Source of the DNA: Coprobacillus sp. CAG:698
GTDB lineage: Bacteria; Bacillota_I; Bacilli_A; ML615J-28; CAG-698
DNA length: 64,000 bases
NCBI GenBank assembly: GCA_000431235.1
Contig: HF988734.1
Location: 72,647 to 136,646 of the forward strand
Direction: 5' to 3'
This document shows positions 11,210-54,542 of the stretch, one piece after another; positions within the stretch are counted from its first letter, which is position 1, and the number at the start of each line of letters is the position of its first letter. Made by a program: the position numbers and the translations under genes. The notes beneath the pieces are model-generated. The model was given only the letters and a program-made list of their open reading frames with translations. It was not told the origin of the DNA and ran no database searches.

Positions 11210-13102
11210 CTAATTTGTATAAAGGTATACATAATTATCTTGTATAATTCTTTCTCCTTGTTTAGGTATTTGATTTATGATTTTATCACCTTTACCGATT
11301 ATTTTTATTTTATAAAATGGATGAGGCAAAACTTCTTTTACATTTTTGTTTATATAATCTTCCACAGTATAATAGAACGAATCAACATACCATCTTGAAT
11401 CAATAGATATTCCTCCACTTTGTTTTTCGATGTTCATAATTGAAAAACTTTGAGTTAATACTTCTTTTACAAGAGGAGCAACAACTACACCTCCATATTG
11501 GACATAAGTTTTAGGAGCTTTGATAGCAATATAACAAGTAATTTGAGGGTTATTCATTGGCGCAATTCCCAAAAAGGAAAGAATATATGTGTTGTCAAGA
11601 TATACGCCATTTACAGGTATTTGGGCTGTACCAGTTTTTCCGCCAACTCGATATCCTTCAATATAAGCTGAACGCGCAGTTCCTAGGGAAACAACACGTT
11701 CTAAAGCAGTACAAACCACATCACTAGTTTCTTTAGAAATAACTCTTCTAACATTTTCTACGCTTTTATAAAATACCTTACTATTTTCGATGCCAATTCC
11801 TTTTACAATATAAGGTTTATTCAGCATACCGCCATTAACAGCAGCGCAAGAAGCATTAACGAGTTGGATAGCTGTTCCAGAGTTTCCTTGACCAAAACTA
11901 GATGTAGCAAGTTCAACGTTACCCACACGATCTAAATCAAATAATATACCTTTAGCTTCTCCCAGTAAATCAACGTTAGTCTTCTCTCCAAAACCATAGT
12001 TTTTAATGTATTTAAAAAGTTTTTCTTTTCCTAAGCGCAGGCCAATTTCCATAAATCCAGGGTTACACGAATTTTGCATTACTTCGAAAAATGTTTCATT
12101 ACCATGACCACCGGCCTTCCAGTCTCTTATTCTTGTTCCATCAACTATTCGATATCCACAACAATTAAAATGCTCGTTTGTATTAAATACTTTTTCTTCT
12201 AAACCTGCAGTATAAGTAACAAATTTAAATGTTGAACCATATTCATAAGTCATCCAAATTGGCAAATTACGATTGTATGTTTCTTGAGGATAATTTTGAT
12301 AATTAATGATATCAAAAGTAGGTCTACTAGCGATAGCAATAATTTCTGATGTCTGAGGATTCATCATAAGTCCTAGTGACTCTTCACTATCATATAACGA
12401 TACTGCATTATCTAAAACAGTTTCTAAGGCAATTTGCACGTCAATATTAATTGTTAGATATATATCTATTCCATTACCGCTTTTTGTGAAAGTGTCACTT
12501 AAATTATCAATCTTTTTTCCATGAGCATCAGTAAAAATATTTAAACTCCCTTTTTCACCTCTTAAAAGGCTGTCGTAAACAAATTCAAGGCCAGTTAGAC
12601 CTTGATTATCACTGCCAACAATCCCTAAAACGTGAGCTAAAGTATTGTTATATGGATAATACCTAACAACATCACCAGTAATATAAATACCTTCTATCCC
12701 AGAACTGATAATTGTTTTGGCTTTTTTAATGTCAATATTTTTACCTTCGGGTTTTATCATTTCTACGGAAACATTTTTTTCAAAGTGTTTACTAATTTTT
12801 TCTTTAGGAACATTTAAAACTGTTGATAAATAATTTATAGCATATTCCTTGTCTTTAATTTGCTTAGGAATAATTGATATTGACGGAGACAACGTATTTC
12901 CAACAATTAATTTTCCATTTGCATCAAATATACGACCTCTTTTATAGCTAACAGGAATGTTTCTAGTCCAAAGATCATAAGCTCTTTCGATATAATCTTC
13001 ACCTTTACTGAAGACAACAAGACCAACTTTTCCAAGAAGAGCGATAAAAAGAGCTAAAAATATAAATACGATTATAAATAATCTTTTATGAATTGTTTTC
13101 AT
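11210..13102 (-). CDS. Class B penicillin-binding protein (transpeptidase)
   Basis: SxxK (STFK), SxN (SCN) and KTG (KTGTA) motifs with an N-terminal TM anchor. I place the start at the internal ATG 13100-13102 (MKTIHK), which has RBS GGTGAT. The upstream 55 codons of the ORF look spurious. Confidence 0.85.
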   Translation of the reverse strand: MKTIHKRLFIIVFIFLALFIALLGKVGLVVFSKGEDYIERAYDLWTRNIPVSYKRGRIFDANGKLIVGNTLSPSISIIPKQIKDKEYAINYLSTVLNVPKEKISKHFEKNVSVEMIKPEGKNIDIKKAKTIISSGIEGIYITGDVVRYYPYNNTLAHVLGIVGSDNQGLTGLEFVYDSLLRGEKGSLNIFTDAHGKKIDNLSDTFTKSGNGIDIYLTINIDVQIALETVLDNAVSLYDSEESLGLMMNPQTSEIIAIASRPTFDIINYQNYPQETYNRNLPIWMTYEYGSTFKFVTYTAGLEEKVFNTNEHFNCCGYRIVDGTRIRDWKAGGHGNETFFEVMQNSCNPGFMEIGLRLGKEKLFKYIKNYGFGEKTNVDLLGEAKGILFDLDRVGNVELATSSFGQGNSGTAIQLVNASCAAVNGGMLNKPYIVKGIGIENSKVFYKSVENVRRVISKETSDVVCTALERVVSLGTARSAYIEGYRVGGKTGTAQIPVNGVYLDNTYILSFLGIAPMNNPQITCYIAIKAPKTYVQYGGVVVAPLVKEVLTQSFSIMNIEKQSGGISIDSRWYVDSFYYTVEDYINKNVKEVLPHPFYKIKIIGKGDKIINQIPKQGERIIQDNYVYLYTN

Positions 13103-13240
13103 GTAATCACCATTATATAATATTAACATACATGCTACTTTATAATTAAAAGAATAAAAAACATATAAACTTGAAAAAATAAATTGAAATAAAATGAAGT
13201 AAGTGATATAATAATATAAATTAAAATGAGGTGAATAATT

Positions 13241-13669
13241 ATGAAAATTGCCATTGGAAGCGATCATGGAGGATATTTACTAAAAGAAGATGTCAAGAAA
13301 TATTTAGAAGAAAAACAAATAGAAACTATTGATTTGGGTTGTAATTCTTTAGAAAGTGTTGATTACCCATTATATGCTCAAAAAGTATGCAAATTAGTAT
13401 CTAATGGCGAAGTATCAGTTGGAATTTTAGTGTGCACTACAGGAGTAGGAATGTGCATTGCCTCAAATAAAGTAAAAGGAGTACGAGCTGTACTAGTTAA
13501 TAATGAAGATATGTGCAGATTAAGTCGTGAGCATAACAACTGTAATGTGTTATGCTTAGGCAGCAAATATACAACGAAAGCTATGGCTGAGAAATATATA
13601 GATATATTTTTAAGCACACCTTTTGCAGGTGGACGCCATGAACGTCGTGTTAATATGATTGAACAATAA
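13241..13669 (+). CDS. rpiB: Ribose-5-phosphate isomerase B
   Basis: [11 protein letters not shown]...[13 protein letters not shown] is the RpiB/LacAB family signature. 142 aa. Confidence 0.85.
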
Positions 13670-14530: not shown

Positions 14531-14597
14531 AATAAATATTTATAAATAAATGTATATTATTTTTATCATCGTAAATAATACATTTGAGGTGATAAAA

Positions 14598-15242
14598 ATG
14601 AAAAAGATATTAAATGCATTTAGTAAAGAAAAAGTTCAAAAATTACTTTTTCTTGCGATGATTGTTTTAGTGTTTGGTGTTTTTATGTTTTCAATTTTTA
14701 AAAGCAATAATACTGATAAACCTAACCCAGATGATCCAGATATAAATAATCCTGATAATCCAACTCCTGATAATCCAACTCCTGATAAACCAGAACCTGA
14801 AAAATACAAGGCTCCATGCGATAATTTATCATGTAGCATAATTAGGCATTTCTATTCTCTTGAAGATGATGCTGCAACTCAAGAAATGTCACTAATTCAA
14901 ATAGGCTCTAAATATCAAATGAGCAGAGGTATTACCTACAAGAAAGAAGATGATTCTTCATTTGACGTATGTGCAACATTAAGTGGTACAGTAACAAATG
15001 TTCAAGAATCTCCACTTTATGGAAATGTAATCACAATAGATCATGGGAATAATATAAAATCTGAGTATTTAGGTGTATCAAAAGTGCTTGTGAAAACTGG
15101 AGATACTGTAAAACAAGGTCAAACAATCGCATCAAGTGGTCAAGCTGAATATGATAAAGTTGCATCAAACCATGTTCATTTCCGCGTATCAATTGATGGA
15201 AAATTTGTTGACCCAGAGGATATTCTTGGAAAAGAAAAATAA
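14598..15242 (+). CDS. Membrane-anchored degenerate M23/LytM-domain protein with Pro-rich repeat linker (SpoIIQ-like)
   Basis: RBS GAGGTGA. N-terminal TM helix followed by a PDNPT tandem repeat. The C-terminal LytM fold has HxH (HVHFRV) but lacks the first HxxxD histidine (SSFDV). Confidence 0.6.
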   Translation: MKKILNAFSKEKVQKLLFLAMIVLVFGVFMFSIFKSNNTDKPNPDDPDINNPDNPTPDNPTPDKPEPEKYKAPCDNLSCSIIRHFYSLEDDAATQEMSLIQIGSKYQMSRGITYKKEDDSSFDVCATLSGTVTNVQESPLYGNVITIDHGNNIKSEYLGVSKVLVKTGDTVKQGQTIASSGQAEYDKVASNHVHFRVSIDGKFVDPEDILGKEK

Positions 15243-19380: not shown

Positions 19381-19425
19381 CAAAAAAGGCTTTACAAAGA
19401 AAATAAAATGTAGTAAAATAAAATA

Positions 19426-19548
19426 GTCCTGTTAAGGACGTCATATGATATCGTCTACTAAACCCTTAGTTAGTAGACCCTCTCTTTCTTATTTCCTACT
19501 ATTATCAAGGCAAAAGGCTTCTAACAGTATTAGAGGTCTTTTGTTTTT
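19426..19548 (+). ncRNA. Candidate small RNA, copy 1 (promoter TTTACA-N17-TAAAAT at 19391-19419)
   Basis: Transcript-start hairpin GTCCTgttaAGGAC. Perfect 9-bp hairpin GTCTACTAA/TTAGTAGAC. CU-rich tract CCCUCUCUUUCUUAUUUCCU. Terminator GGCTTCTAA-cagta-TTAGAGGTC followed by TTTTGTTTTT. Confidence 0.4.
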
Positions 19549-19612
19549 AAAAAAATAAAAAAATTTTTAAAAAACTCTTTACAAAAAAAACCTAATGGTA
19601 TATAATATTAGT

Positions 19613-19740
19613 GTCCTATTAATTAGGACATCATATGATATCGTCTACTAAACCCCTAGTTAGTAGACCCTCTCTTTCTTATTTCCTACTATTATCAAAG
19701 CAAAGTGCTCTTAACTCTGTTGAGGGCATTTTGTTTTTTT
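19613..19740 (+). ncRNA. Candidate small RNA, copy 2 (promoter TTTACA-N17-TATAAT at 19578-19606)
   Basis: About 95% identical to copy 1 over the core (one C/T change in the hairpin loop, one A/G change). The terminator stem has a different sequence but the same structure: GCTCTTAAC/GTTGAGGGC followed by TTTTGTTTTTTT. Confidence 0.4.
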
Positions 19741-20058
19741 ACTCGCTTTTTTGGTTCATTTTCATCTCAAAAATATCAAAATTATTATTTTTTGGCTGAT
19801 TTATTTTTAGACATTACCATGACATAAAATAAAATAAATAACAAAATAAGACACTATTTTGATGGTATTTATGAAAAAAACTGAATAAAAAGAATAAAAT
19901 ATGACAAAATAATGGAAAAGTTACCATTGAATTAAAAAAAATGTTTACTTTTTACTAGAAAAGTAGTATAATACTAATGTTACATTAAAAAAGTGTACAT
20001 ACACACATATTATTAAAACAAAAGATGAAAAATAATAGTTTTAAGGAGAATGATTTTT

Positions 20059-23000
20059 ATGAATGGTTCATCTATTTTCAAAAAAGTATTTCCAGTAGTT
20101 CTAGTAATTGCAATGATATGCTTAATTACATTAGTAACAACATGTGCTAAAACTGGAAAAACAAACAAACCTGAGATTTCAAATCCTAATGGTGAGTACA
20201 TTTCAATAAAAGAAACTATTAACGGAAAAGAGTACAAGTACGTTATTTCTCGTAGTGAAATGTATGAAGAATTAAAGAGTGGAATCGGACTTAGCACACT
20301 CATTACTGAAGCTAACAAGAAAGTATTAGCTGAAGAAATGAAATCTGTTTCTGAAGAAGATATCGAAAAGGAAATCAAAAAGGCTACATATGGTGAAGAT
20401 GTAGACCCTGAAGATTTAACTGAAGAAAACAGAAATAAAAAGAAAAAAGAATTTGAAGAGTCAATGTTACAAGGCTATGGCTATGAAAACGAAGACGAAA
20501 TCAAAGATCATTATCGTTTAGTTCTTGCAAAAAAAGCTTATACGAATAAAAAACTTTATGAAGAAGCTAAAGATGCAAAAGATGGTGATGATTTATATAT
20601 CGCTGATACAAAAATTGATGATTATTATAAAGACAATTATAATAAATCATATTATGCAATTATCGTTCCATTTGCTTCAAGTGAAAGCATTAAGAGTGCA
20701 TTATTACAACTTGGTGTTGTAAGAAGTGGTGATAAATGGTATCATGCAGAATTGAAAGAAATCAAAGTTGGTTCTGGAATTTATGAAGTAGATCGTAAAG
20801 AAGAATTAACAGTTAATGAAATAATCGAAACTATTCTTAAACTTAATGAAATGGTTTATGGTTATCAAAAAGATTACGGATATAAAGTTGAAAATGCAAT
20901 ATTTGATTCTGAAAAGAAGACATATAGAGTTCCTGAAGGATGTGACTATGCAGTTGTAAGTTGTGCTGATAAATTAGCAGAACTAAAAGCATTAGCTACT
21001 GAGCTTACTCCTTTAGTGACTCCTGCAGATGGAAGTAAATTAACAGATGAAGAAAAACAAGCTGCTTTAGCTAAAGTTACTGAAATCCAAGCTAAATTAG
21101 ATGAAATTTCTGAAATGTTAGTTTATACAACAGAAGTTAAGAAAATTCAAAACATTATTACTTCACTTACTGATTCTCTAAATTATGAGACTAAAGAAGA
21201 CGATAAAAACGAAACTCCTGAAGACCCAACTATAGTAACACAAACATTAAATAAGTTTATTAGCGAATTTGATGGTGTGGCTTATATCTTTAATACAAAC
21301 AATGAAGAAAGCAAATTCTTCTATTCATATAGTGATTTAAAAGCTTACGATAGCAATTTACCAAGTGAATTCAAAAACAATTATATTGAATACATTCCTT
21401 ATGGTGAAGGTGATAAATCAGCAAGTAAGAACGGCGAAAAATGGTTCTCTGCTTCTTATGTTTCAAGTGGAAATATGTATTACATAATTCTAAAAATCAA
21501 AGAAAAAGATGCTGAACAACTTGCAGATGTTAAGGAAGAAATCAAAAACAAATTGTTAGAAGAAAAATTAACTTCTTCATACATTGAGAAAAAAATGGCT
21601 GAGTTAAGAAACGATAAAGGTTTCAAAGTTTATGATACTGATTTAGAAAAAGAATACATTAATACAATCTCTTCTTACAAAATTAAATATAAACAAAGCA
21701 AGAAAGATGGAAGCAATGTTGTAGGTGAAATTGATGGAACTAAATTCACTTCTGATGATTTATTCAAAGCAATGGATAAGACTTCAGGTGCTGCTTCAGT
21801 AGTAAGTGAATTATCATATCGTAGAATGGTTAACAATACACTATTCAACAAATATTATGATTATACAACTGGTAAATGGATTGGCAAAGAAGGAAAAGAT
21901 AAACGTGATGAAATCACAACATCTATTGAAAATCAAAGATTATACTATTTATCAGGTGCTTATTCATCTTATGGATATGATCCAAGCTCAATGAGTTGGT
22001 CTGAATTCCTTAAGAATGTAAATGGTGCTAAAGATGAAAAAGATTTAGCATTCCTTAACCTTTATAGTCAAGTAATTTCTGATTATATCAAAAAAGCATT
22101 TAACACAATCACTGTAACAGGTGAAGGCAAAGATACTAAATTTGAAGATACATACGCAGAAGCTTTAACTTCTAAAGTATGGAAATTAATCGAAGAAAGA
22201 ATGAAGAAAGCTCAAGAAGAAGAATTTACTGTTAATGGTGTTCATTTATTAGTTTCTGCTTATAAAACTGTTAATGACGCTGTAGCATCAAAGAACTCTT
22301 CATCTTCGTCTTCGTCTTCATCTAAAGTTTCTGCTTTAGATCCAAAAGATTGGACTGAAGAACAAGTTAAACTTGCAAAAGAACTCATTGAAAAAGTAAG
22401 TTTATACTTAGAAAGTGCTGAAGGAACATATGAAAGCAAATTAGAAGCAGTTGTATCTGCATTCGATAGTGCTCCATATGCATATGTTGATCCAACAACA
22501 AACGAATATGTAAAAATCATCAACGATAGTGGTGAAGAATATAAGTATTATTTAGAATGCGCTGAATGTAAAATTGATTTAGCAAAATATAAATCTGCTG
22601 GTTTAACACTAACTTATCAAAACTTAGGATCTTTCACAAACGGAAAGATGGTTAAAGAATTTGAAGAAGCTGCAAGATCTATTTGGAAAAAAGATTATGC
22701 AGATAAAGAATTTAATAGAGTTACAGTATATGGAGAACCAATCAAAACTGAATTTGGATACCATTTATATGTAAATCTAAGTAGTTCAGACTATACAGAA
22801 TATGATAGCATTAAAGTAGATGCTAATGGAAATCCAGTTTATACAAATGATGTTCTTGAAAAATTTAAATCTGTTCTTCCAAGCTTATACGAAGTAAGAT
22901 TAGGTTTATTACTAACTGCTTTAGAAGCAATTGATCAAACTAAATTAAGTAAAGAAGATGCTAAAGTTGTTCAAGAAAAAATTGATGAATTAAAACCATT

Positions 23001-23271
23001 GTATACAACAGAAATTAAGACAGCTGTAGAAAAATATGCAACTCCAATTATTACAAATCTAAATAGTTCATATTATTCATCATTAGTTCAACAAGCTGAA
23101 GTATTATCATTAATGGAAGGCGTTACAATTGATTCACCAAGTGGAATCAATCTTGCAAAGATTAAGAAGTTAATGGATATTAGCAGAGCTTCAATATTTA
23201 AAAGTAATCTAGCAAACTTAGAAGAAGGCGATCAAGACATCGTTAAAGCTTCTGATGTTTATGGAAAGTAA
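20059..23271 (+). CDS. Large lipoprotein with split parvulin-type PPIase domain (PrsA-like foldase family, expanded)
   Basis: RBS AAGGAGA with ATG at 20059. Signal peptide plus lipobox LVTTC. C-terminal parvulin motifs VHLLVS ... GKMVKEFEEAA ... FGYHLY. A poly-Ser run is present. 1070 aa. Confidence 0.6.
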   Translation: MNGSSIFKKVFPVVLVIAMICLITLVTTCAKTGKTNKPEISNPNGEYISIKETINGKEYKYVISRSEMYEELKSGIGLSTLITEANKKVLAEEMKSVSEEDIEKEIKKATYGEDVDPEDLTEENRNKKKKEFEESMLQGYGYENEDEIKDHYRLVLAKKAYTNKKLYEEAKDAKDGDDLYIADTKIDDYYKDNYNKSYYAIIVPFASSESIKSALLQLGVVRSGDKWYHAELKEIKVGSGIYEVDRKEELTVNEIIETILKLNEMVYGYQKDYGYKVENAIFDSEKKTYRVPEGCDYAVVSCADKLAELKALATELTPLVTPADGSKLTDEEKQAALAKVTEIQAKLDEISEMLVYTTEVKKIQNIITSLTDSLNYETKEDDKNETPEDPTIVTQTLNKFISEFDGVAYIFNTNNEESKFFYSYSDLKAYDSNLPSEFKNNYIEYIPYGEGDKSASKNGEKWFSASYVSSGNMYYIILKIKEKDAEQLADVKEEIKNKLLEEKLTSSYIEKKMAELRNDKGFKVYDTDLEKEYINTISSYKIKYKQSKKDGSNVVGEIDGTKFTSDDLFKAMDKTSGAASVVSELSYRRMVNNTLFNKYYDYTTGKWIGKEGKDKRDEITTSIENQRLYYLSGAYSSYGYDPSSMSWSEFLKNVNGAKDEKDLAFLNLYSQVISDYIKKAFNTITVTGEGKDTKFEDTYAEALTSKVWKLIEERMKKAQEEEFTVNGVHLLVSAYKTVNDAVASKNSSSSSSSSSKVSALDPKDWTEEQVKLAKELIEKVSLYLESAEGTYESKLEAVVSAFDSAPYAYVDPTTNEYVKIINDSGEEYKYYLECAECKIDLAKYKSAGLTLTYQNLGSFTNGKMVKEFEEAARSIWKKDYADKEFNRVTVYGEPIKTEFGYHLYVNLSSSDYTEYDSIKVDANGNPVYTNDVLEKFKSVLPSLYEVRLGLLLTALEAIDQTKLSKEDAKVVQEKIDELKPLYTTEIKTAVEKYATPIITNLNSSYYSSLVQQAEVLSLMEGVTIDSPSGINLAKIKKLMDISRASIFKSNLANLEEGDQDIVKASDVYGK

Positions 23272-23284
23272 GGAGGTTAATAAA

Positions 23285-25921
23285 ATGAAAAAAATAATTG
23301 CGATATTATTAACACTCGTATTAACAGTATCTTTAGTAGGTTGTACTAAAAACGATAAAAAGAATCCTCAACTTACAAATGGTGCTCAAGAACTTAGCTC
23401 AATCACTGAAAATGGCGTTAAATATGTAGTTACAAACCAAGAAGCATATAATGCTTTAAAGGCACAATATGGTAGCACTATTCTAATTGATTTAATCGAT
23501 ACAAAATTAATGAGTACTCTTAAAAACAAAGATGGAAAAACATTCTTTGATGCAGTTTTAGATGAAGACATCGTTAAAGAAATCGATAAAGTTATGTATG
23601 GTGAAGATGAATTAACTGATAAAGAAAAAGATGAAAAGAAAAAAGATTTTCTTGAAAATTTATTCATTGGTAGCGGTATTATTACTGAAGATCCTTATGC
23701 AACAGAAGTAAAAGATAAATATCGTTTAGTTCTTGCTGAAAGAGCTTATGCTAAAGAATTATTAGCAAAAGATGTTAAGGAAAACGATGCTAAATACGAA
23801 GAATACGCTAAGTTAACAAAAGAAGAACAAGAACAAAAATTAAAAGATGAACCAAAAACTCCAACTGATTATTATTTTGCTGATTCAAAAATCCAAGCTA
23901 AATATGCAAAAGATGTTTATAGTAAATTTGAAGCAATAATTGTTCCATTTACTTCAAAACGTCAAGCTGAAATAGCATTAACACAAATTAACGTAACTGT
24001 TAAAGATGGTGTTTGGACTGATGGAACAAATGCATTATCAGCTCTTCAAGTTTTTGAAAAATTCATTGAACTTTATAAAGTTGTTTACGGATACAAAGTT
24101 ACTGGTGAGTTAAATAAAGATAGTGAAGAATTCAAATTTAACGAAGGCGATTTAAATAGTAATATTCTAAAAGTCGTTAAAGATAAATTAGAAACATATA
24201 CAGAAGATAGCAAGAATGAAGCACCTAAATGGTACACACCTAACGCAATCGAAATTGGTTCAGGTAATGAAGCTATTTATGTATTAAAATTAAATGAAGA
24301 GTTAGCTACATCTTATGAAGATTTAGACGAAGCTGGCAAAAAAGCTCAAAGAGAAAAATATACTGATGCTTTAATTGATGAAACAGTTACATCTAATTAT
24401 GTACTTGTAAAAATGGGTTTATTAAGAAAAGAACAAAATATAGTTATCTATGATAGCGTTGTTGAAAACTTATATAGTAATGCAATGTCTAAGTTATCTG
24501 TAACATATGATAAAACAAAATTAGAAAGTGCTGAGTATGTTGCTGAAACAACTGATATTAAAGTAACACCAAAAGATTTATATGATGCTATGCTTAAATA
24601 TCAAGGTGCTGCTATTGTTATGGATAAACTTGTTGAAAAGAGAGCTTTATATAATAAGAACTTCAATAAGTATTATGATATGAGCACTAACAAATGGTTA
24701 AATAATAATAAGAAAACTGAAATAACTGATTTAATTGAAGCTGAAAAGAAAAACTTCAAAAATGGAAACTATAAAGATTATGGATATGATCCTAGTCAAA
24801 TGAGTTGGACATTATTTATTAAATCATTATATACAGTTGAAAACGAAGATGAATTAGTTCTTTCATTCTTAGCTGAATCTATTACAAAAGAATATGCTAA
24901 GAATATCAATAGATTTGCTGAACTAAACGATAAAGGCGAATTCGTACTTTCTAACGATGCTGCACTAACTGATAACTATTGGCGTTTAATAAGCAATCAA
25001 ATGGAAGCTGAAGCAAAGAAAAAATTCAGCGTTGAAGGAATTCATTTATTAGTATCACACTATGATACAGTTGAAGATTATATCAGCGGAAGCAATATTG
25101 TTGATCCAGAAAAGTGGACAGAAGAACAAAGAGTAGCTGCTGAAAAATTAGTTAACGAAGTTATTGCTTTCGTTAAAGATTCAAAGGGCTCATATGCTTC
25201 TCGTTTAGAAAGAATTGCAGAAGCTTTCAAATATGCTCCTGTTAAAAATGCTGATGCAACATATGCTAATAACAAAGTTGCAAGAACAATCGTTAGTGAT
25301 GGCGGTGCTGTTACAATTAACTTAAGTGAATATAAAGAAAAAGGTTTATATGTAAAATATGAATCATTAGGTGTTTTCGCTCAAGGTAAGATGGTTGAAT
25401 CTTTCAATGATGCTGTTAAGAAAATTTGGGATGCAGATGCAGATAAAGACGTATTCAATGACAAAGATCTTAATGATGTAGATAAAGTAACAGTTTTAGA
25501 AACTCCAATTAAGACTTCATTTGGATATCATGCATATATTAATATTGAAAGTAAAGAATTAAGTTCTTATATCAAAGTTATCACAGATTCTGTAGATGGT
25601 AAAACATTCCATAAATATCAATACGTACCAACTATGGATGAAGTTCGTAAGTATGTTAAGAATACAAATACTACTGAAATAACTGAAAAAGTTAAAAATG
25701 CTATTAAGACATATTATACTCCAATAGCAGATGAATTAAGTGGTGATGCATTCTCATACATTATGATGGTTAATGCTTTAGAACAAGTTATAAGTTCTTA
25801 TTCATCAACTGATAACGGAGTATCTCAAGATGCTTTAAAGAAATATATTGAATGTTATAAAGATTATACATTTAGTGATTTATTAAGTAATGTTACAGTT
25901 GATTATTTATATGTAAAATAA
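23285..25921 (+). CDS. Large lipoprotein, paralog of the upstream gene (PrsA-like split parvulin domain)
   Basis: RBS AAGGAGG. Lipobox LVGC. Many blocks are collinear with the upstream protein (DKYRLVLAE..., GYDPSQMSW, IHLLVSHYD, GKMVESFNDA, FGYHAYIN). 878 aa. Confidence 0.6.
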   Translation: MKKIIAILLTLVLTVSLVGCTKNDKKNPQLTNGAQELSSITENGVKYVVTNQEAYNALKAQYGSTILIDLIDTKLMSTLKNKDGKTFFDAVLDEDIVKEIDKVMYGEDELTDKEKDEKKKDFLENLFIGSGIITEDPYATEVKDKYRLVLAERAYAKELLAKDVKENDAKYEEYAKLTKEEQEQKLKDEPKTPTDYYFADSKIQAKYAKDVYSKFEAIIVPFTSKRQAEIALTQINVTVKDGVWTDGTNALSALQVFEKFIELYKVVYGYKVTGELNKDSEEFKFNEGDLNSNILKVVKDKLETYTEDSKNEAPKWYTPNAIEIGSGNEAIYVLKLNEELATSYEDLDEAGKKAQREKYTDALIDETVTSNYVLVKMGLLRKEQNIVIYDSVVENLYSNAMSKLSVTYDKTKLESAEYVAETTDIKVTPKDLYDAMLKYQGAAIVMDKLVEKRALYNKNFNKYYDMSTNKWLNNNKKTEITDLIEAEKKNFKNGNYKDYGYDPSQMSWTLFIKSLYTVENEDELVLSFLAESITKEYAKNINRFAELNDKGEFVLSNDAALTDNYWRLISNQMEAEAKKKFSVEGIHLLVSHYDTVEDYISGSNIVDPEKWTEEQRVAAEKLVNEVIAFVKDSKGSYASRLERIAEAFKYAPVKNADATYANNKVARTIVSDGGAVTINLSEYKEKGLYVKYESLGVFAQGKMVESFNDAVKKIWDADADKDVFNDKDLNDVDKVTVLETPIKTSFGYHAYINIESKELSSYIKVITDSVDGKTFHKYQYVPTMDEVRKYVKNTNTTEITEKVKNAIKTYYTPIADELSGDAFSYIMMVNALEQVISSYSSTDNGVSQDALKKYIECYKDYTFSDLLSNVTVDYLYVK

Positions 25922-25930
25922 AAGTAAATA

Positions 25931-25968
25931 GTTGTTACATAGCTTTATAGTTATGTGACAACTTTTTT
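25931..25968 (+). terminator. Intrinsic terminator after the lipoprotein pair
   Basis: GTTGTTACATA-(10 nt)-TATGTGACAAC followed by TTTTTT. Confidence 0.5.
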
Positions 25969-26182
25969 CATTAAATCATTTGCATCTGATTGTAATAATG
26001 AATTAATTGAATTTGTACCTGATGACCCTGAAAGAGAAGGATACACTTTTAAAGGATGGTACAAAGAAGCAGAGTGCACAAGCAAATGGGATTTTGAAAT
26101 TGACATTGTTCCTAAAAAAGATAATGCAGAAGAATTTATAGAAACTAAATTATATGCTAAGTGGGATAAAGTGAAAGATTAG
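25955..26182 (+). pseudogene. Orphan fragment encoding a Listeria-Bacteroides (InlB B-repeat-like) repeat; likely a gene remnant
   Basis: Motif GYTFKGWY...W.F...LYAKW. It has only a GTG start, which lies inside the preceding terminator hairpin, and no RBS or promoter. Confidence 0.3.
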
Positions 26183-26346
26183 AAATGTGAAAATTACAAA
26201 GTAATATATAAATATAGATAATATAAACAACATCCTTGTATATAAGTCAATTAGTACTCAGATAATTTGGATATTCATTGACTTTTTTTATGTTGATAAA
26301 AGGATATATTTGTTGTATAATATTTATATTAGGAGAAAAAAAGTTT

Positions 26347-27114
26347 ATGAAAGTATGTGTTTTATCTAGCGGTTCAAAAGGTAATATGACTTATGTAGAA
26401 GGTGGGAATACTCGTTTATTGATTGATGCGGGGATTACCTTGACTAATGCATGTAGAAGGAATCCTAATTTACCATTAGACAAAGTTACAGATATTATTG
26501 TTACTCATGAACATGGGGATCATGTAGGATACTTAGATACTATATCAAAGAAAACAAAGGCTAATATTTATATTTCTAAAAAAAGCTTTTTAGGTTTAAA
26601 ACCAGCATTTAGAGATAAGTTCGTTGGAAAAAAGATATGTTTCATAGAACCAGAAGCAAAGTATAAAATAGGTGATTTGGATGTTTATACATTTAAACTA
26701 AATCATGATTGCATGGAAGTGTTAGGATATGTAATTTCATATGAAGGAAAAAGCGTAGGGTACTTTACTGATACTGGAATTATGCCTGACAAATATTTGC
26801 CATATTTAAGTGGTTTAGATGTTCTTATCATTGAAGCTAACCATAATGTTGAAAAGTTACTTAATAGTAATCGTGACTATAGTTTGATTAATCGTATATT
26901 AAGTACTGAAGGACATATTTCTAATCAAAAATGTTATGAAATATTAAAATCTGTTTTAAACGAAAAGAATAAATATGTTATTTTAGCTCATATAAGTGAA
27001 GATTGTAACTCTGAACAATGCTTATATGAAGAAATTATAAACAAATTATACAATTTTAAAGGTACTATTCTTATTGCAAGCCAATATGAAGCTAGTGAGG
27101 TAATAGAACTATGA
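26347..27114 (+). CDS. MBL-fold metallo-hydrolase (YycJ/WalJ-like)
   Basis: Motif HEHGDH. Promoter TTGATA-N17-TATAAT upstream. ATG at 26347 follows GGAGAAAAAAAG. Confidence 0.7.
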   Translation: MKVCVLSSGSKGNMTYVEGGNTRLLIDAGITLTNACRRNPNLPLDKVTDIIVTHEHGDHVGYLDTISKKTKANIYISKKSFLGLKPAFRDKFVGKKICFIEPEAKYKIGDLDVYTFKLNHDCMEVLGYVISYEGKSVGYFTDTGIMPDKYLPYLSGLDVLIIEANHNVEKLLNSNRDYSLINRILSTEGHISNQKCYEILKSVLNEKNKYVILAHISEDCNSEQCLYEEIINKLYNFKGTILIASQYEASEVIEL

Positions 27115-51803: not shown

Positions 51804-54542
51804 ATGAAGCTTTTAAGAAAAACAATTTTAACTACTATAATTATTTTATTTGTCGTCTTATCTTTTGCATCAATTAAGAATTATGTATACGCACATAACG
51901 CAGATTTAGATGTTGAATATGATATATGTGATCTTGATGAGGGAAATTTGTGGTATTATATCTCATCACAAAAATATGTATCATATCCACATGGGGAAAG
52001 AGTTTACTATAAAGATTTAACACATCTTAGTCAGGAAGTTACTACTATTTCATATTATATAAATAATAACTCAAAAGACAATGTAAATTATACGTGGACT
52101 ACAAATTTAACTGAAGAAGAAGCATTGAATGTAAAACAAACATTTGTTAATAGTATGTTAAAATGGAATGATATTTACTATTATTCTTATGATCAACAGG
52201 GTAATAGAGTAACTAATAAAGTAATTAATATCGTAGAAACATTAGAAAAAAATAATGCTGAAATTGTTATATATCCAAAATATGAAGTCAAAAATGATGA
52301 TGGGCTGTATTATGCATGCACTTCACAAGAAAGTGAACCAAATACAATTGAAGAAGATATAAAAGAAGAAGGCTCTGAAAATTACTCACATTCACATGTA
52401 TTAAAATGGGATATTGAAGTAAATTTATATATGTATAATCCACGAGAAGAAGAATTTTCCCATGTGAGTAAGGTGACTGGAGAGCATGAAATAGGTCATG
52501 TACTTGGACTTCGAGATGTTGATACAATATGTGATCATTATTTACCTCAACATTCAGAATTATTGATGGGATATGGAGGTACTTCTAATAGCCATGTAAC
52601 ATACGCAACATATAAAGATATTGCAGGTGTTAGTATTACTAGAGGGTTTCACGATGTCGACGACCATATATGGATGAAAAGGATTAATGATGATGGATCA
52701 ATAGATTTGATTTGTGCGTTGTGTAATGGCATTATGAAAAACATAACACTAGATTCTAATGGATTAACATATAATGGAAAAATGATAAACAAATATAAAG
52801 ATTGTATCCATTACGGAAAATATAATTCAAATATGCTATTGGTTGCTACTGACGGAATTAGAAACTTCTTTAAATGTTTAAACTGCAGACACATAGATAC
52901 TATTGAAATTAATAATGAATATAATTTATTAAATGAATTAACAATGATTAATGATTCATATAATATTAATGCGGGTAAAAAGAATGTTTTTAAATTGAAT
53001 ATTGATAGAACAAATTTATATGAAATACTTCTTAATTCAACATCACCAAGTGAAATTAGACTATATGATGAAAACTTTAATAAAATCACAACATTTAGTT
53101 CAGTAGATAACACTACTTTGATAACTAATAAAATTCTAAATGCAGGGACTTATTATATAGAAATAGAAAATAAAGGAACAAATAGTGCTAATTATACAAT
53201 GAAAATTATATTTGATAATTCTGTGGATTTACGTGAAGAACGCAACAATATATTATTAAATATTAATAGAGGAATTGGGAATTATCGCTATTATAATACT
53301 AATGGTGCAGGGTTTTATAAATTTTCATTATATGGTACAAAAACAGATAATTCTTTAATCACTTATCCATCAGGTTCATTGAAAATATATGATAATGCTT
53401 TAAAGAATGTATTAATGAATAAATATAATTTAGATGTTATATCAAATTATGCCCAAAGTAAATATAATGAGAATAGCATAATTGTATATTTATCAAGAAA
53501 CGATTATTTCTTTTTAAATATTGATATTCCTGCTAATGATTTATCAAGTTTATACTTAGATATTACACAATTAGAAAATCAGGAAATAAATTTGTTTAAT
53601 TATTCTGAAACGTCAGACCAAACGCAAAACATTTTAAATATAAATAGCAAAGGAGACTATTTTAAGAAAATATTAATTAAGCAAACTGGAAAATTTGTGA
53701 TTTACACAAATTTTGAAGTCCAAGGAAATAATAATATTATATTTGTCTTGCTTAAACTAGATTATGATATCTCTACCAATACATCTACAACTACAACAGT
53801 AATAGAAAAAGAACTAACAAACGAGTATGATTCATATCAAACAACAGTTTCATTAACTGATGGAACGTATTATATAGGATATTTTGATAAATATGACTTA
53901 AGTAATTTTAGGGTTTCATTTAAAAGATTGATTTCTTTATCTGGTGGAGATGCTCTAGTCACAGATCCAGATAGTGGCACTTTGTGCGGTAGTCAGATAA
54001 ATATAATCGAAATGAATAAATCTAGTAAAAGTTATAGAGAGACATATATTACTAGATATTTCACGAGAGTTATTTATCCTGATTCTAACTTGGGAATATC
54101 AAACTCAAGACTAGATTATAATTGGTATTCAAGTGATGAAACAATAGCTACAGTATCTTCATACGGAACAGTTTTTGGTAAAAATTTTGGTACAGTTAAA
54201 ATTATGGCAGTTTTAAAGAATGACCCTTCAAAGACATTTGTCAAAGAATTTTCGGTTATTGATGATATAGCAGCAAATCCTTTGACTATCATTAATACAT
54301 ATACAGTTAAATTTACAGATAGAAGAAACTTTAAAATTAATTTTGAAAAAATTAATTGCCCATATCCATGGATACAATATTATAACTGGAGCCTTGATAC
54401 AAAATGTCATAATAGCAAGATAACTGTTTCTATGGATAAATGGGGAACAATAAAAGCTGATGATAGGGGATGTTTCACATTGACTGGTTCGTATACATTG
54501 AATACAAGAATTACGATTAAAATACATGTTATAATATCATAA
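51804..54542 (+). CDS. Secreted metzincin-like zinc metalloprotease (HExxHxxGxxD, snapalysin/M7-like motif) with C-terminal Big_2 Ig-like domain
   Basis: N-terminal signal/TM. HEIGHVLGLRD motif. C-terminal Big_2-like segment (NWYSSDETIATVSSYGTVFGKNFGTVKIMAV). 912 aa. Confidence 0.6.
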   Translation: MKLLRKTILTTIIILFVVLSFASIKNYVYAHNADLDVEYDICDLDEGNLWYYISSQKYVSYPHGERVYYKDLTHLSQEVTTISYYINNNSKDNVNYTWTTNLTEEEALNVKQTFVNSMLKWNDIYYYSYDQQGNRVTNKVINIVETLEKNNAEIVIYPKYEVKNDDGLYYACTSQESEPNTIEEDIKEEGSENYSHSHVLKWDIEVNLYMYNPREEEFSHVSKVTGEHEIGHVLGLRDVDTICDHYLPQHSELLMGYGGTSNSHVTYATYKDIAGVSITRGFHDVDDHIWMKRINDDGSIDLICALCNGIMKNITLDSNGLTYNGKMINKYKDCIHYGKYNSNMLLVATDGIRNFFKCLNCRHIDTIEINNEYNLLNELTMINDSYNINAGKKNVFKLNIDRTNLYEILLNSTSPSEIRLYDENFNKITTFSSVDNTTLITNKILNAGTYYIEIENKGTNSANYTMKIIFDNSVDLREERNNILLNINRGIGNYRYYNTNGAGFYKFSLYGTKTDNSLITYPSGSLKIYDNALKNVLMNKYNLDVISNYAQSKYNENSIIVYLSRNDYFFLNIDIPANDLSSLYLDITQLENQEINLFNYSETSDQTQNILNINSKGDYFKKILIKQTGKFVIYTNFEVQGNNNIIFVLLKLDYDISTNTSTTTTVIEKELTNEYDSYQTTVSLTDGTYYIGYFDKYDLSNFRVSFKRLISLSGGDALVTDPDSGTLCGSQINIIEMNKSSKSYRETYITRYFTRVIYPDSNLGISNSRLDYNWYSSDETIATVSSYGTVFGKNFGTVKIMAVLKNDPSKTFVKEFSVIDDIAANPLTIINTYTVKFTDRRNFKINFEKINCPYPWIQYYNWSLDTKCHNSKITVSMDKWGTIKADDRGCFTLTGSYTLNTRITIKIHVIIS

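Follow-up and report, generated by a model that had tools for sequence, protein, structure and literature searches.

Background

Post-translocational folding in Gram-positive bacteria depends mainly on the foldase PrsA, which limits secretion yields and contributes to virulence. The canonical protein is a homodimer with the shape of a bowl that receives unfolded Sec substrates and, to our knowledge, until 2024-2026 PrsA was known essentially as a dimer of chains of ~300 amino acids (aa). In this study, we describe two neighbouring genes, here called A and B, which encode giant PrsA-like proteins of 1070 and 878 aa and which lie at positions 20,059 to 25,921 of a 64,000-nucleotide stretch of DNA (the window) from Coprobacillus sp. 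CAG:698 (assembly GCA_000431235.1, contig HF988734.1, positions 72,647 to 136,646 of the forward strand). The source species is a metagenome-derived member of the Bacillota that is placed by NCBI in the Erysipelotrichia, and the G+C content is ~29% across the window. Based on family profiles, structure prediction and the comparison of related loci, we propose that A and B are probably co-transcribed, membrane-tethered extracytoplasmic foldases or chaperones of the PrsA type, each of which was enlarged by an internal tandem duplication.

The closest described systems come from Mycoplasma pneumoniae. Its proteins Mdp436, Mdp444 and Mdp489 are distant PrsA homologs in which a SurA-type domain and a PPIC domain are duplicated internally and which cover the Sec translocon as a dome; outside Mycoplasmoidaceae no significant homologs were reported, and at least one catalytically intact copy was found per genome (bioRxiv 10.1101/2025.04.25.650208). 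Other research showed that Mpn444 and Mpn436 have peptidyl-prolyl isomerase (PPIase) activity and that their parvulin domain is discontinuous in the sequence (bioRxiv 10.1101/2024.09.05.611430). A preliminary description of the present locus, which was made from the sequence alone, called the proteins unusual. They are approximately three times the size of PrsA and tandem, as it stated, but giant duplicated PrsA homologs with a split parvulin domain had already been described in M. pneumoniae (bioRxiv 10.1101/2025.04.25.650208; 10.1101/2024.09.05.611430).

Two adjacent paralogs with shared motifs

Genes A and B are adjacent, co-oriented paralogs. In the BLASTP comparison, the C-terminal ~620 aa of the two proteins were aligned with 30% identity (621 aa, 1e-76) and the N-terminal ~280 aa at 4e-23, while the gap in the alignment amounted to ~190 extra residues in A relative to B. 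The open reading frames (ORFs) and these alignments bear out both the pair of 1070 and 878 aa and the collinear blocks that had been reported for it. The HLLVS motif was found at A729 and B587, GKMV at A862 and B701, and FGYH at A899 and B746; these placements had been given correctly, as had the poly-Ser tract in A. This tract is not conserved in the orthologs, and in the alignment the loop that hosts it is variable. On the other hand, the attribution of GKMVKEFEDAA and FGYHII to Bacillus subtilis PrsA was wrong: GKMVKEFEDAA belongs to PDB 6xd8, 'Foldase protein PrsA 1', and the B. subtilis protein (4wo7) has EGQMDETFSKAAF ... TQYGYHII at these motifs. In the 2013 ENA record, A was labelled 'pPIC-type PPIASE domain protein', and PGAP labels both A and B as hypothetical. 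An artefact of assembly or gene fusion was rejected because the exact proteins recur on many independent contigs, in clusters of 85 and 121 members, and the architecture is kept in distant metagenome-assembled genomes (MAGs).

Tandem double-PrsA architecture

Each of the two proteins consists of two PrsA-like units that are arranged head to tail. In the AlphaFold2 (AF2) model of B (predicted local distance difference test, pLDDT, 90.3; predicted template modelling score, pTM, 0.74), the order of the elements assigned by DSSP, i.e., a beta-hairpin, a long helix, 4-5 helices, a beta-rich central domain and 3-5 helices, occurs twice, in residues 36-403 and 420-877, and hhalign aligned unit 1 of B with unit 2 collinearly over the first ~100-120 aa (E 2.6e-4). 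A Foldseek search of this model against the PDB returned PrsA crystal structures as all of the top 10 matches, with a probability of 1.0, followed by HP0175, PEB4, SurA and PpiD. Moreover, when unit 1 of A was modelled alone (AF2 m7569e0a18f21, aa 28-548, pLDDT 88.3), its Foldseek matches in the PDB were a YacD model and PrsA 5tvl, 4wo7, 6vj6, 9ibn and 5htf (E 6e-4 to 6e-3, probability 1.0, ~500 columns), and therefore the central domain of unit 1 occupies the parvulin position.

The profile searches lead in the same direction. A profile of 36 family sequences gave weak but coherent matches to PrsA and parvulins in the PDB, and a profile of 48 distant members matched B. subtilis PrsA 4wo7 at E 4.1e-5. 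The match to 4wo7 consists of four pieces. PrsA residues 9-64, the start of the N-domain, lie on profile positions 50-106; residues 212-261, the C-terminal helix, lie on positions 379-427, ahead of the parvulin region of unit 2; residues 171-206, with the FGYH strand, lie on positions 719-748; and a weaker piece, residues 62-117, overlaps the first N-terminal one. When the parvulin region was used alone, 43 of the 44 matches in the PDB were parvulins or parvulin-containing chaperones (best E 8.2e-4). The modelled domain has the elements of the parvulin fold, namely a four-stranded antiparallel sheet with flanking helices in the order beta-alpha3-beta-alpha-beta2. The chaperone domain typical of PrsA (NC), in which N- and C-terminal helices surround the parvulin domain, was also present, but the single unit of ~280-320 aa that is recognised by a curated PrsA model was not, as both proteins (878 and 1070 aa) have two units per chain.

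The two units are not equivalent. The central domain of unit 1 has no His-His, no GYH motif and no Pfam match, and in the conservation table it carries a conserved motif of its own, A-I-I-V-P-F ... L.Q ... W. In A, the same domain contains a four-helix bundle that has no counterpart in B, that coincides with the BLASTP gap and that explains most of the difference in length between A and B; in Foldseek, this bundle gave local matches to the FAT, talin and vinculin four-helix bundles (E ~1). The size of the proteins is not due to an insertion in one parvulin domain, which had been the earlier explanation, but to the internal duplication of the whole PrsA unit, with additional inserts.

The split parvulin domain as loop elaboration

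The beta1 His and the GxM motif are 114 residues apart in B and 133 in A; by the numbering of the profile alignments, the corresponding spacing is 48 for the minimal parvulin 2m08 and 69 for Pin1, which leaves ~45-85 extra residues. The large insertion of ~130 aa that had been assumed was not confirmed, since these residues are spread over several loops; a single inserted domain of 130 aa was rejected, as DSSP and the Pin1 alignment give distributed loop expansions. When the profile is aligned with Pin1, the long beta1-alpha1 loop of Pin1 and its helix alpha1 are matched by the stretch of B that follows beta1, which includes an invariant P..W. The extra elements of B, according to DSSP, are a beta-meander with a short helix (653-687), a longer alpha4-beta3 loop (721-741) and a hairpin (764-779). 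The order within the domain is the Pin1-like loop, two helices, A651-P652, the beta-meander (659-679), KYK.AGL, beta2 and GKMVESF, and with ~200 aa the domain is roughly twice the usual size.

The proline pocket and its conservation

The roles of the pocket residues follow the two Mycoplasma preprints and what is generally known about Pin1. In B, the residues that correspond to Pin1 H59, H157, T152 and L122/M130/F134 are H587, H749, T744 and L695, M703, F707, and in A the dual-histidine motif is represented by H729 and H902. Among the paralogs that retain the histidines, the dual histidines, the Thr and the hydrophobic proline pocket are invariant or nearly so, and the family-specific motif KYK.AGL stands directly before beta2. 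None of the basic phosphate-binding residues of Pin1 were found in the equivalent loop of B, SHYDTVEDYISGSNIVDPEKW.

The comparison of loci included 16 GTDB-species loci, all of them from MAGs. At least one copy with the full H...M...F...T.FGYH set was present in all 15 of the informative loci, and in the two-copy loci the second copy often has Gln in place of His together with the loss of M703, F707 and F746. Such a correlated retention or loss of the pocket residues is the pattern that is expected of a functional pocket under purifying selection, and this comparative pattern is the strongest argument for the pocket being functional, as it presumably is. Copies with the correlated pocket loss were observed at L003:6001-8595 and L004:6001-8598 and as the 890-906-aa or 821-aa copies in loci L006-L011 and L016.

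Predicted membrane anchoring and operon structure

The two proteins differ in their N-terminal signals. A signal peptide plus lipobox had been claimed for both. B has a canonical lipobox, LVGC, which is conserved in nearly all B-type orthologs; in A, the hydrophobic segment ends in VTTC, a non-canonical sequence with Thr at -1. The A-type Cys (VTTC or VATC) was present only in the window protein and its two closest orthologs, P0017 and P0018, and was missing from the more distant A-type orthologs P0019-P0041. Because of this absence, a signal-anchor or a signal peptidase I-type signal is likelier than lipidation, and A is probably signal-anchored or processed by signal peptidase I and not a classical lipoprotein.

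The intergenic gap between A and B is 13 nt which, together with the Shine-Dalgarno sequence of B that overlaps the end of A, points to co-transcription and possibly to coupled translation. A scan of the region found no terminator-like site between the genes. Since a terminator follows B and a promoter-like site precedes A (Table 1), A and B look like one operon. The number of promoter-like sites in the region was not above the shuffled expectation, and the site at 19944-19972 is a pattern match only. As for the start codons, ATG 20059 is the likely start of A owing to its spacing of 9 nt from the Shine-Dalgarno sequence; the start at 20050, which had been chosen by the ORF lister, was rejected because this ATG abuts the Shine-Dalgarno sequence. 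For B, a start at 23255 was rejected because the spacing fits 23285 better. Directly 3' of the terminator of B, a start-less ORF remnant (window 25997-26182, + strand), probably a fragment of a surface-protein pseudogene, codes for a Listeria-Bacteroides repeat (Pfam Flg_new, E 2.7e-12).

Distribution of the family and conservation of the locus

A word-indexed database search gave 15 and 29 clusters, none of which had a Pfam domain. An exhaustive profile search of 1.84 billion cluster representatives yielded 578 matches with E <= 1e-3, of which 172 reached E <= 1e-30; their lengths were mostly 800-1260 aa. A further large-database search with a broad profile revealed no additional annotated relatives. 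The MAGs of the 16 loci are labelled Bacilli, 'Coprobacillus', Tenericutes or Bacillota, with the exception of two uncultured Bacteroidales records. The gene order is conserved as cca-like, yhaM, A and B, MBL-fold hydrolase, rlmH, uvrB and mnmA. In the more distant lineages, an 892-aa copy, the MBL gene and an 811-aa copy follow one another, and loci L013 and L014 have a single gene of 857 aa. A neighbour-joining tree, which is rough and midpoint-rooted, suggests that the paralog pairs arose via two independent duplications. A cargo gene of a mobile element or phage was rejected as an explanation because the flanks are cca, yhaM, rlmH, uvrB, mnmA and recD2. Regarding the MBL-fold hydrolase of the window, an ATG at 26347 that follows GGAGAA would give a protein of 255 aa, which fits the orthologs of 255-260 aa in most of the related loci.

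The gene upstream of A and B matched the YhaM equivalog model at 1.3e-77 with 260.9 bits, the curated cutoff of the model being 460 bits. In Listeria (prsA2) and Staphylococcus aureus prsA adjoins yhaM, and in B. subtilis it lies near yhaM (PMC3921577). By their location next to yhaM, like prsA elsewhere, A and B therefore occupy the prsA position. Because this is the ancestral position of prsA, A and B most likely act as the PrsA of this lineage, for which the yhaM association is supportive and not defining. Since genes for a class B penicillin-binding protein (PBP) and an M23 peptidase are present elsewhere in the window, the host presumably makes peptidoglycan, unlike the Mycoplasma species with the analogous giant PrsA homologs.

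Proposed function and alternative explanations

In the proposed mechanism, each PrsA unit would be a SurA-like helical chaperone domain wrapped around a central domain in the parvulin position. B would be anchored via the lipidated Cys20, and A would be anchored by, or released from, its N-terminal hydrophobic signal, so that both would be extracytoplasmic. Unit 1, with its degenerate central domain, would probably serve only as a client-binding or scaffold module, decorated with the four-helix bundle in A, and unit 2 would provide an elaborated parvulin in which the two histidines and the Thr are kept along with a proline pocket of Leu, Met and Phe. We infer that the two fused units act as a covalently linked pseudo-dimer, and a further assembly of A with B is possible. 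Such an assembly would hold newly translocated polypeptides at the outer membrane face and assist their folding, with prolyl isomerisation, if it is retained, taking place at the unit-2 pocket.

Several observations weigh against this reading. Full-length A and B had no Pfam match at E <= 1 and likewise none to NCBIfam, including its PrsA models; the single-sequence Pfam and NCBIfam scans gave only noise matches (Csm1_B, EST1 and similar). None of 48 diverse family members matched Pfam Rotamase at E <= 0.01, and the excised parvulin domains of A and B scored 13.4-13.5 bits (E 0.11-0.16) against Rotamase PF00639 and Rotamase_3 PF13616, for which the gathering cutoffs are 21.7-22.5 bits. A single-sequence phmmer search of the PDB found only 2lj4 (E 0.51). 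In hhalign, the central domain of unit 1 gave no signal with the parvulin of unit 2, and we infer its parvulin-like nature from position and topology only. Finally, the position of Pin1 C113 and PrsA D154 aligns to an invariant Ala-Pro (A651-P652 in B), in a weak stretch of the alignment (domain independent E-value ~19). Given an Ala at this position, the PPIase activity of A and B may be low or absent; in Mpn444, the D310A mutant showed reduced PPIase activity (bioRxiv 10.1101/2024.09.05.611430). The C-terminal parvulin of the preliminary description stands as a fold, detected via family profiles and structure prediction, but not at the threshold of the curated Pfam and NCBIfam profiles. Similarly, both His, the Thr and the hydrophobic pocket are kept, whereas the C113/D154 position is apparently Ala. 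Failing profiles or absent catalytic residues had been named as the outcomes that would speak against a parvulin, and half of this was found: the curated profiles miss the domain, and one catalytic position is apparently Ala.

It is possible, if unlikely, that A and B are non-enzymatic holdases or scaffolds that keep the parvulin fold as a peptide-binding surface, like the PpiD or SurA P1 domains, which differs from the foldase reading in catalysis only. This would agree with the invariant Ala at the putative C113/D154 position, the lack of catalytic motifs in the unit-1 central domain and the sub-threshold scores of the curated Rotamase hidden Markov models. Moreover, the PPIase activity of PrsA is reportedly dispensable in B. 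subtilis, and several parvulin domains of the PrsA/SurA family are inactive. However, each genome has at least one paralog that strictly retains the His pair, the Thr and the Met/Phe/Leu pocket, whereas the other copy has lost them jointly; this argues that the pocket is in use, even though a pocket for binding only would fit this pattern too.

We consider it rather unlikely that A and B are true homologs of the dome proteins Mdp436/444/489 that together form a folding cage on SecYEG/SecDF. The duplicated SurA-domain and PPIC, the inserts within PPIC and the several paralogs, at least one of which has the catalytic residues, are all consistent with such a relationship, as are the start of the central domain, at ~214 in B versus 222-229 in the Mdps, and the host, which belongs to a low-GC Bacillota group related to Mollicutes. 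Nevertheless, with no Pfam match a membership in IPR022186 is unsupported, Mdp444 has its conserved PPIC in the N-terminal unit but A and B have theirs in unit 2, and the internal duplication could be convergent. More speculatively still, and with a probability that we regard as low, the family could be the counterpart in walled Bacillota, and possibly the evolutionary precursor, of the Sec-associated dome proteins, with A and B jointly building a chamber for folding above the translocon. In that case, PrsA would have been duplicated internally at the ancestral yhaM-prsA locus before or outside the Mycoplasmoidaceae, which, if true, would contradict the proposal that the dome evolved through the missing wall of Mycoplasma.

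The earlier choice between a foldase and an adhesin can be narrowed, as the relatives with a C-terminal parvulin fold are foldases or chaperones of the PrsA type while the adhesin alternative found no support: it is very improbable that A and B are adhesin-like or antigenic surface proteins unrelated to folding, for although the large size, the surface anchoring, the poly-Ser tract of A and the variable helical insert could suggest it, the Pfam scans detected no adhesin, Ig-like or repeat domains in A and B, two PrsA-like units cover their whole length, the poly-Ser tract is not conserved, and the housekeeping locus is conserved with vertical inheritance across distant MAG lineages. An S-layer protein was rejected on account of the absence of such domains and the housekeeping locus.

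Read as PrsA-type foldases, A and B would extend the duplication logic of Mycoplasma to uncultured, apparently walled Bacillota of the gut and the environment. Their family has no Pfam or NCBIfam model, was repeatedly duplicated into paralogs and appears to have undergone subfunctionalisation of the active site. Several hundred protein clusters would thereby receive an annotation, the reasons for the fusion of PrsA units could be addressed in a system that is closer to PrsA and therefore more tractable, and it could be tested whether Sec-coupled folding cages are confined to wall-less bacteria.

Features of the window

The coordinates of the features are collected in Table 1.

Table 1. Positions of genes A and B, their domains and signals, and other features in the window; aa, residues of the encoded protein.
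Feature	Position in window	Strand	Basis or remarks
Gene A, 1070-aa double-PrsA protein	20059..23271	+	CCY08131.1; TAA stop 23269-23271
Shine-Dalgarno AAGGAGA, gene A	20043..20049	+	Read from sequence; 9 nt to ATG 20059, 0 nt to ATG 20050
Candidate sigma-70-type promoter, TTTACT-17-TATAAT	19944..19972	+	Consensus scan 10/12; ~85 nt upstream of A start
A N-terminal hydrophobic signal/anchor, aa 1-29	20059..20145	+	MNGSSIFKK and ~20 hydrophobic residues, ends VTTC
A unit 1, aa ~46-538	20194..21672	+	Beta-hairpin, SurA/PrsA-like helices, degenerate parvulin-position domain, C-terminal helices
Four-helix-bundle insertion in A unit-1 central domain, aa ~303-402	20965..21264	+	DSSP model helices 276-293, 303-324, 327-347, 363-375
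A unit 2, aa ~556-1070	21724..23268	+	Conserved parvulin; 30% identity to B unit 2 over 621 aa
A parvulin-fold domain, aa ~722-930	22222..22848	+	H729, poly-Ser 747-755, GKMV 862, T897, FGYH 899-902
Poly-Ser tract, 9 Ser, beta1-alpha1 loop of A parvulin domain, A747-755	22297..22323	+	Motif search
Gene B, 878-aa double-PrsA lipoprotein (putative)	23285..25921	+	CCY08132.1; labelled 'unknown'
Shine-Dalgarno AAGGAGG, gene B	23270..23276	+	Read from sequence; 8 nt before ATG 23285; overlaps A stop codon
B lipoprotein signal peptide, aa 1-20, lipobox LVGC (Cys20)	23285..23344	+	Canonical [LVI][ASTVI][GAS]C
B unit 1, aa 36-403	23390..24493	+	Beta-hairpin, PrsA N-domain-like helices, central domain, PrsA-like C-terminal helices; profile vs 4wo7 and DSSP
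B unit-1 degenerate parvulin-position domain, aa 214-339	23924..24301	+	DSSP beta-alpha-beta-beta-alpha-beta-alpha-beta-beta
B unit 2, aa 420-878	24542..25918	+	hhalign vs unit 1; same DSSP element order
B parvulin-fold domain, aa 582-779	25028..25621	+	H587 in beta1, GKMVESF (M703, F707), T744, FGYH 746-749
Intrinsic terminator after B, 15-bp stem then T-run	25930..25969	+	Sequence scan
MBL-fold hydrolase downstream of B	26278-27114	+	Listed from TTG 26278
Class B PBP (Transpeptidase and PBP_dimer)	11210-13267	-	Window gene
M23 peptidase	14550-15242	+	Window gene
Thiamine pyrophosphate (TPP) riboswitch RF00059	40309-40407	+	60.8 bits; only Rfam match in window above gathering score

Two tandem units of ~125 nt that resemble small RNAs (sRNAs) are located between yhaM and A, at 19420-19548 and 19610-19738 (window 19391-19738), with a period of 190 nt and 87% identity. 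Both units come with a separate strong promoter-like site (TTTACA-17-TAAAAT and TTTACA-17-TATAAT, respectively) and end in a terminator hairpin. In the predicted fold, one hairpin at the 5' end and another in the middle are accompanied by a long CU-rich stretch that stays unpaired, CCCUCUCUUUCUUAUUUCCU, which is anti-Shine-Dalgarno-like in look; the stems of the 5' hairpin and the terminator differ between the two copies, yet both copies fold. The same unit was found at the same position in related MAGs (L001:2238-2360 and 2437-2559, L002:2205-2302, L003:2357-2472, L012:5606-5717) with 85-95% nucleotide identity, compared to only 40-66% identity for the flanking proteins. These repeats matched no Rfam family, the best being sau-19 with 25.7 bits against a cutoff of 80, and the unit is a candidate for a new small RNA family. 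Elsewhere in the window, an ORF of 912 aa (51804-54542, + strand) without relation to A and B combines a signal-like segment at the N-terminus with the motif HEIGHVLGL of the zinc-metalloprotease type; it had no Pfam match at E <= 1e-6.

Comparison with known systems

Among the Gram-negative periplasmic proteins, SurA likewise has two parvulin domains, one of which is inactive; however, its duplication is confined to the parvulin and does not extend to the entire chaperone unit. PpiD, which contacts SecYEG, sits in the membrane via a transmembrane helix at its N-terminus, in a way similar to the likely anchoring of A. SurA, PpiD, HP0175 and PEB4 all differ from A and B in phylum and compartment, and A and B have no sequence-level membership in these groups.

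The PrsA proteins of Bacillota (B. subtilis 4wo7, Listeria PrsA1/PrsA2, Streptococcus pneumoniae 5tvl and the B. subtilis paralog YacD) are extracytoplasmic and membrane-anchored, as A and B are predicted to be, B with a lipobox, and they share with A and B the N- and C-terminal helical chaperone domain that flanks the parvulin as well as the yhaM neighbourhood. In contrast to them, A and B are 3-4 times larger through the tandem duplication of the whole unit in one chain, with a first parvulin-position domain that is degenerate and a second one that is approximately twice the normal size by loop elaboration. Moreover, the Asp/Cys catalytic position of A and B is apparently Ala, Pfam Rotamase and the NCBIfam PrsA models are blind to both proteins, and A is without a conserved lipobox.

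Compared by their published description, Mdp436/Mdp444/Mdp489 (Mpn444, Mpn436; IPR022186) are, like A and B, giant and membrane-anchored with a duplicated PrsA-like unit, a parvulin that is interrupted by insertions and several paralogs per genome, at least one of which has the catalytic residues. No similarity of A and B to the Mdp family, or to any other Pfam family, was detected at the level of HMMER, and the Mpn444 chains 9gn0 and 9qgq were not among the PDB matches of the family profiles with E <= 10. The conserved PPIC is in the C-terminal unit of A and B and in the N-terminal unit of Mdp444, and the Mycoplasmoidaceae have no cell wall, whereas the host of A and B encodes a class B PBP. 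Judged by this shared architecture, the Mdp/Mpn444 proteins of Mycoplasma are the closest characterised analogue of A and B.

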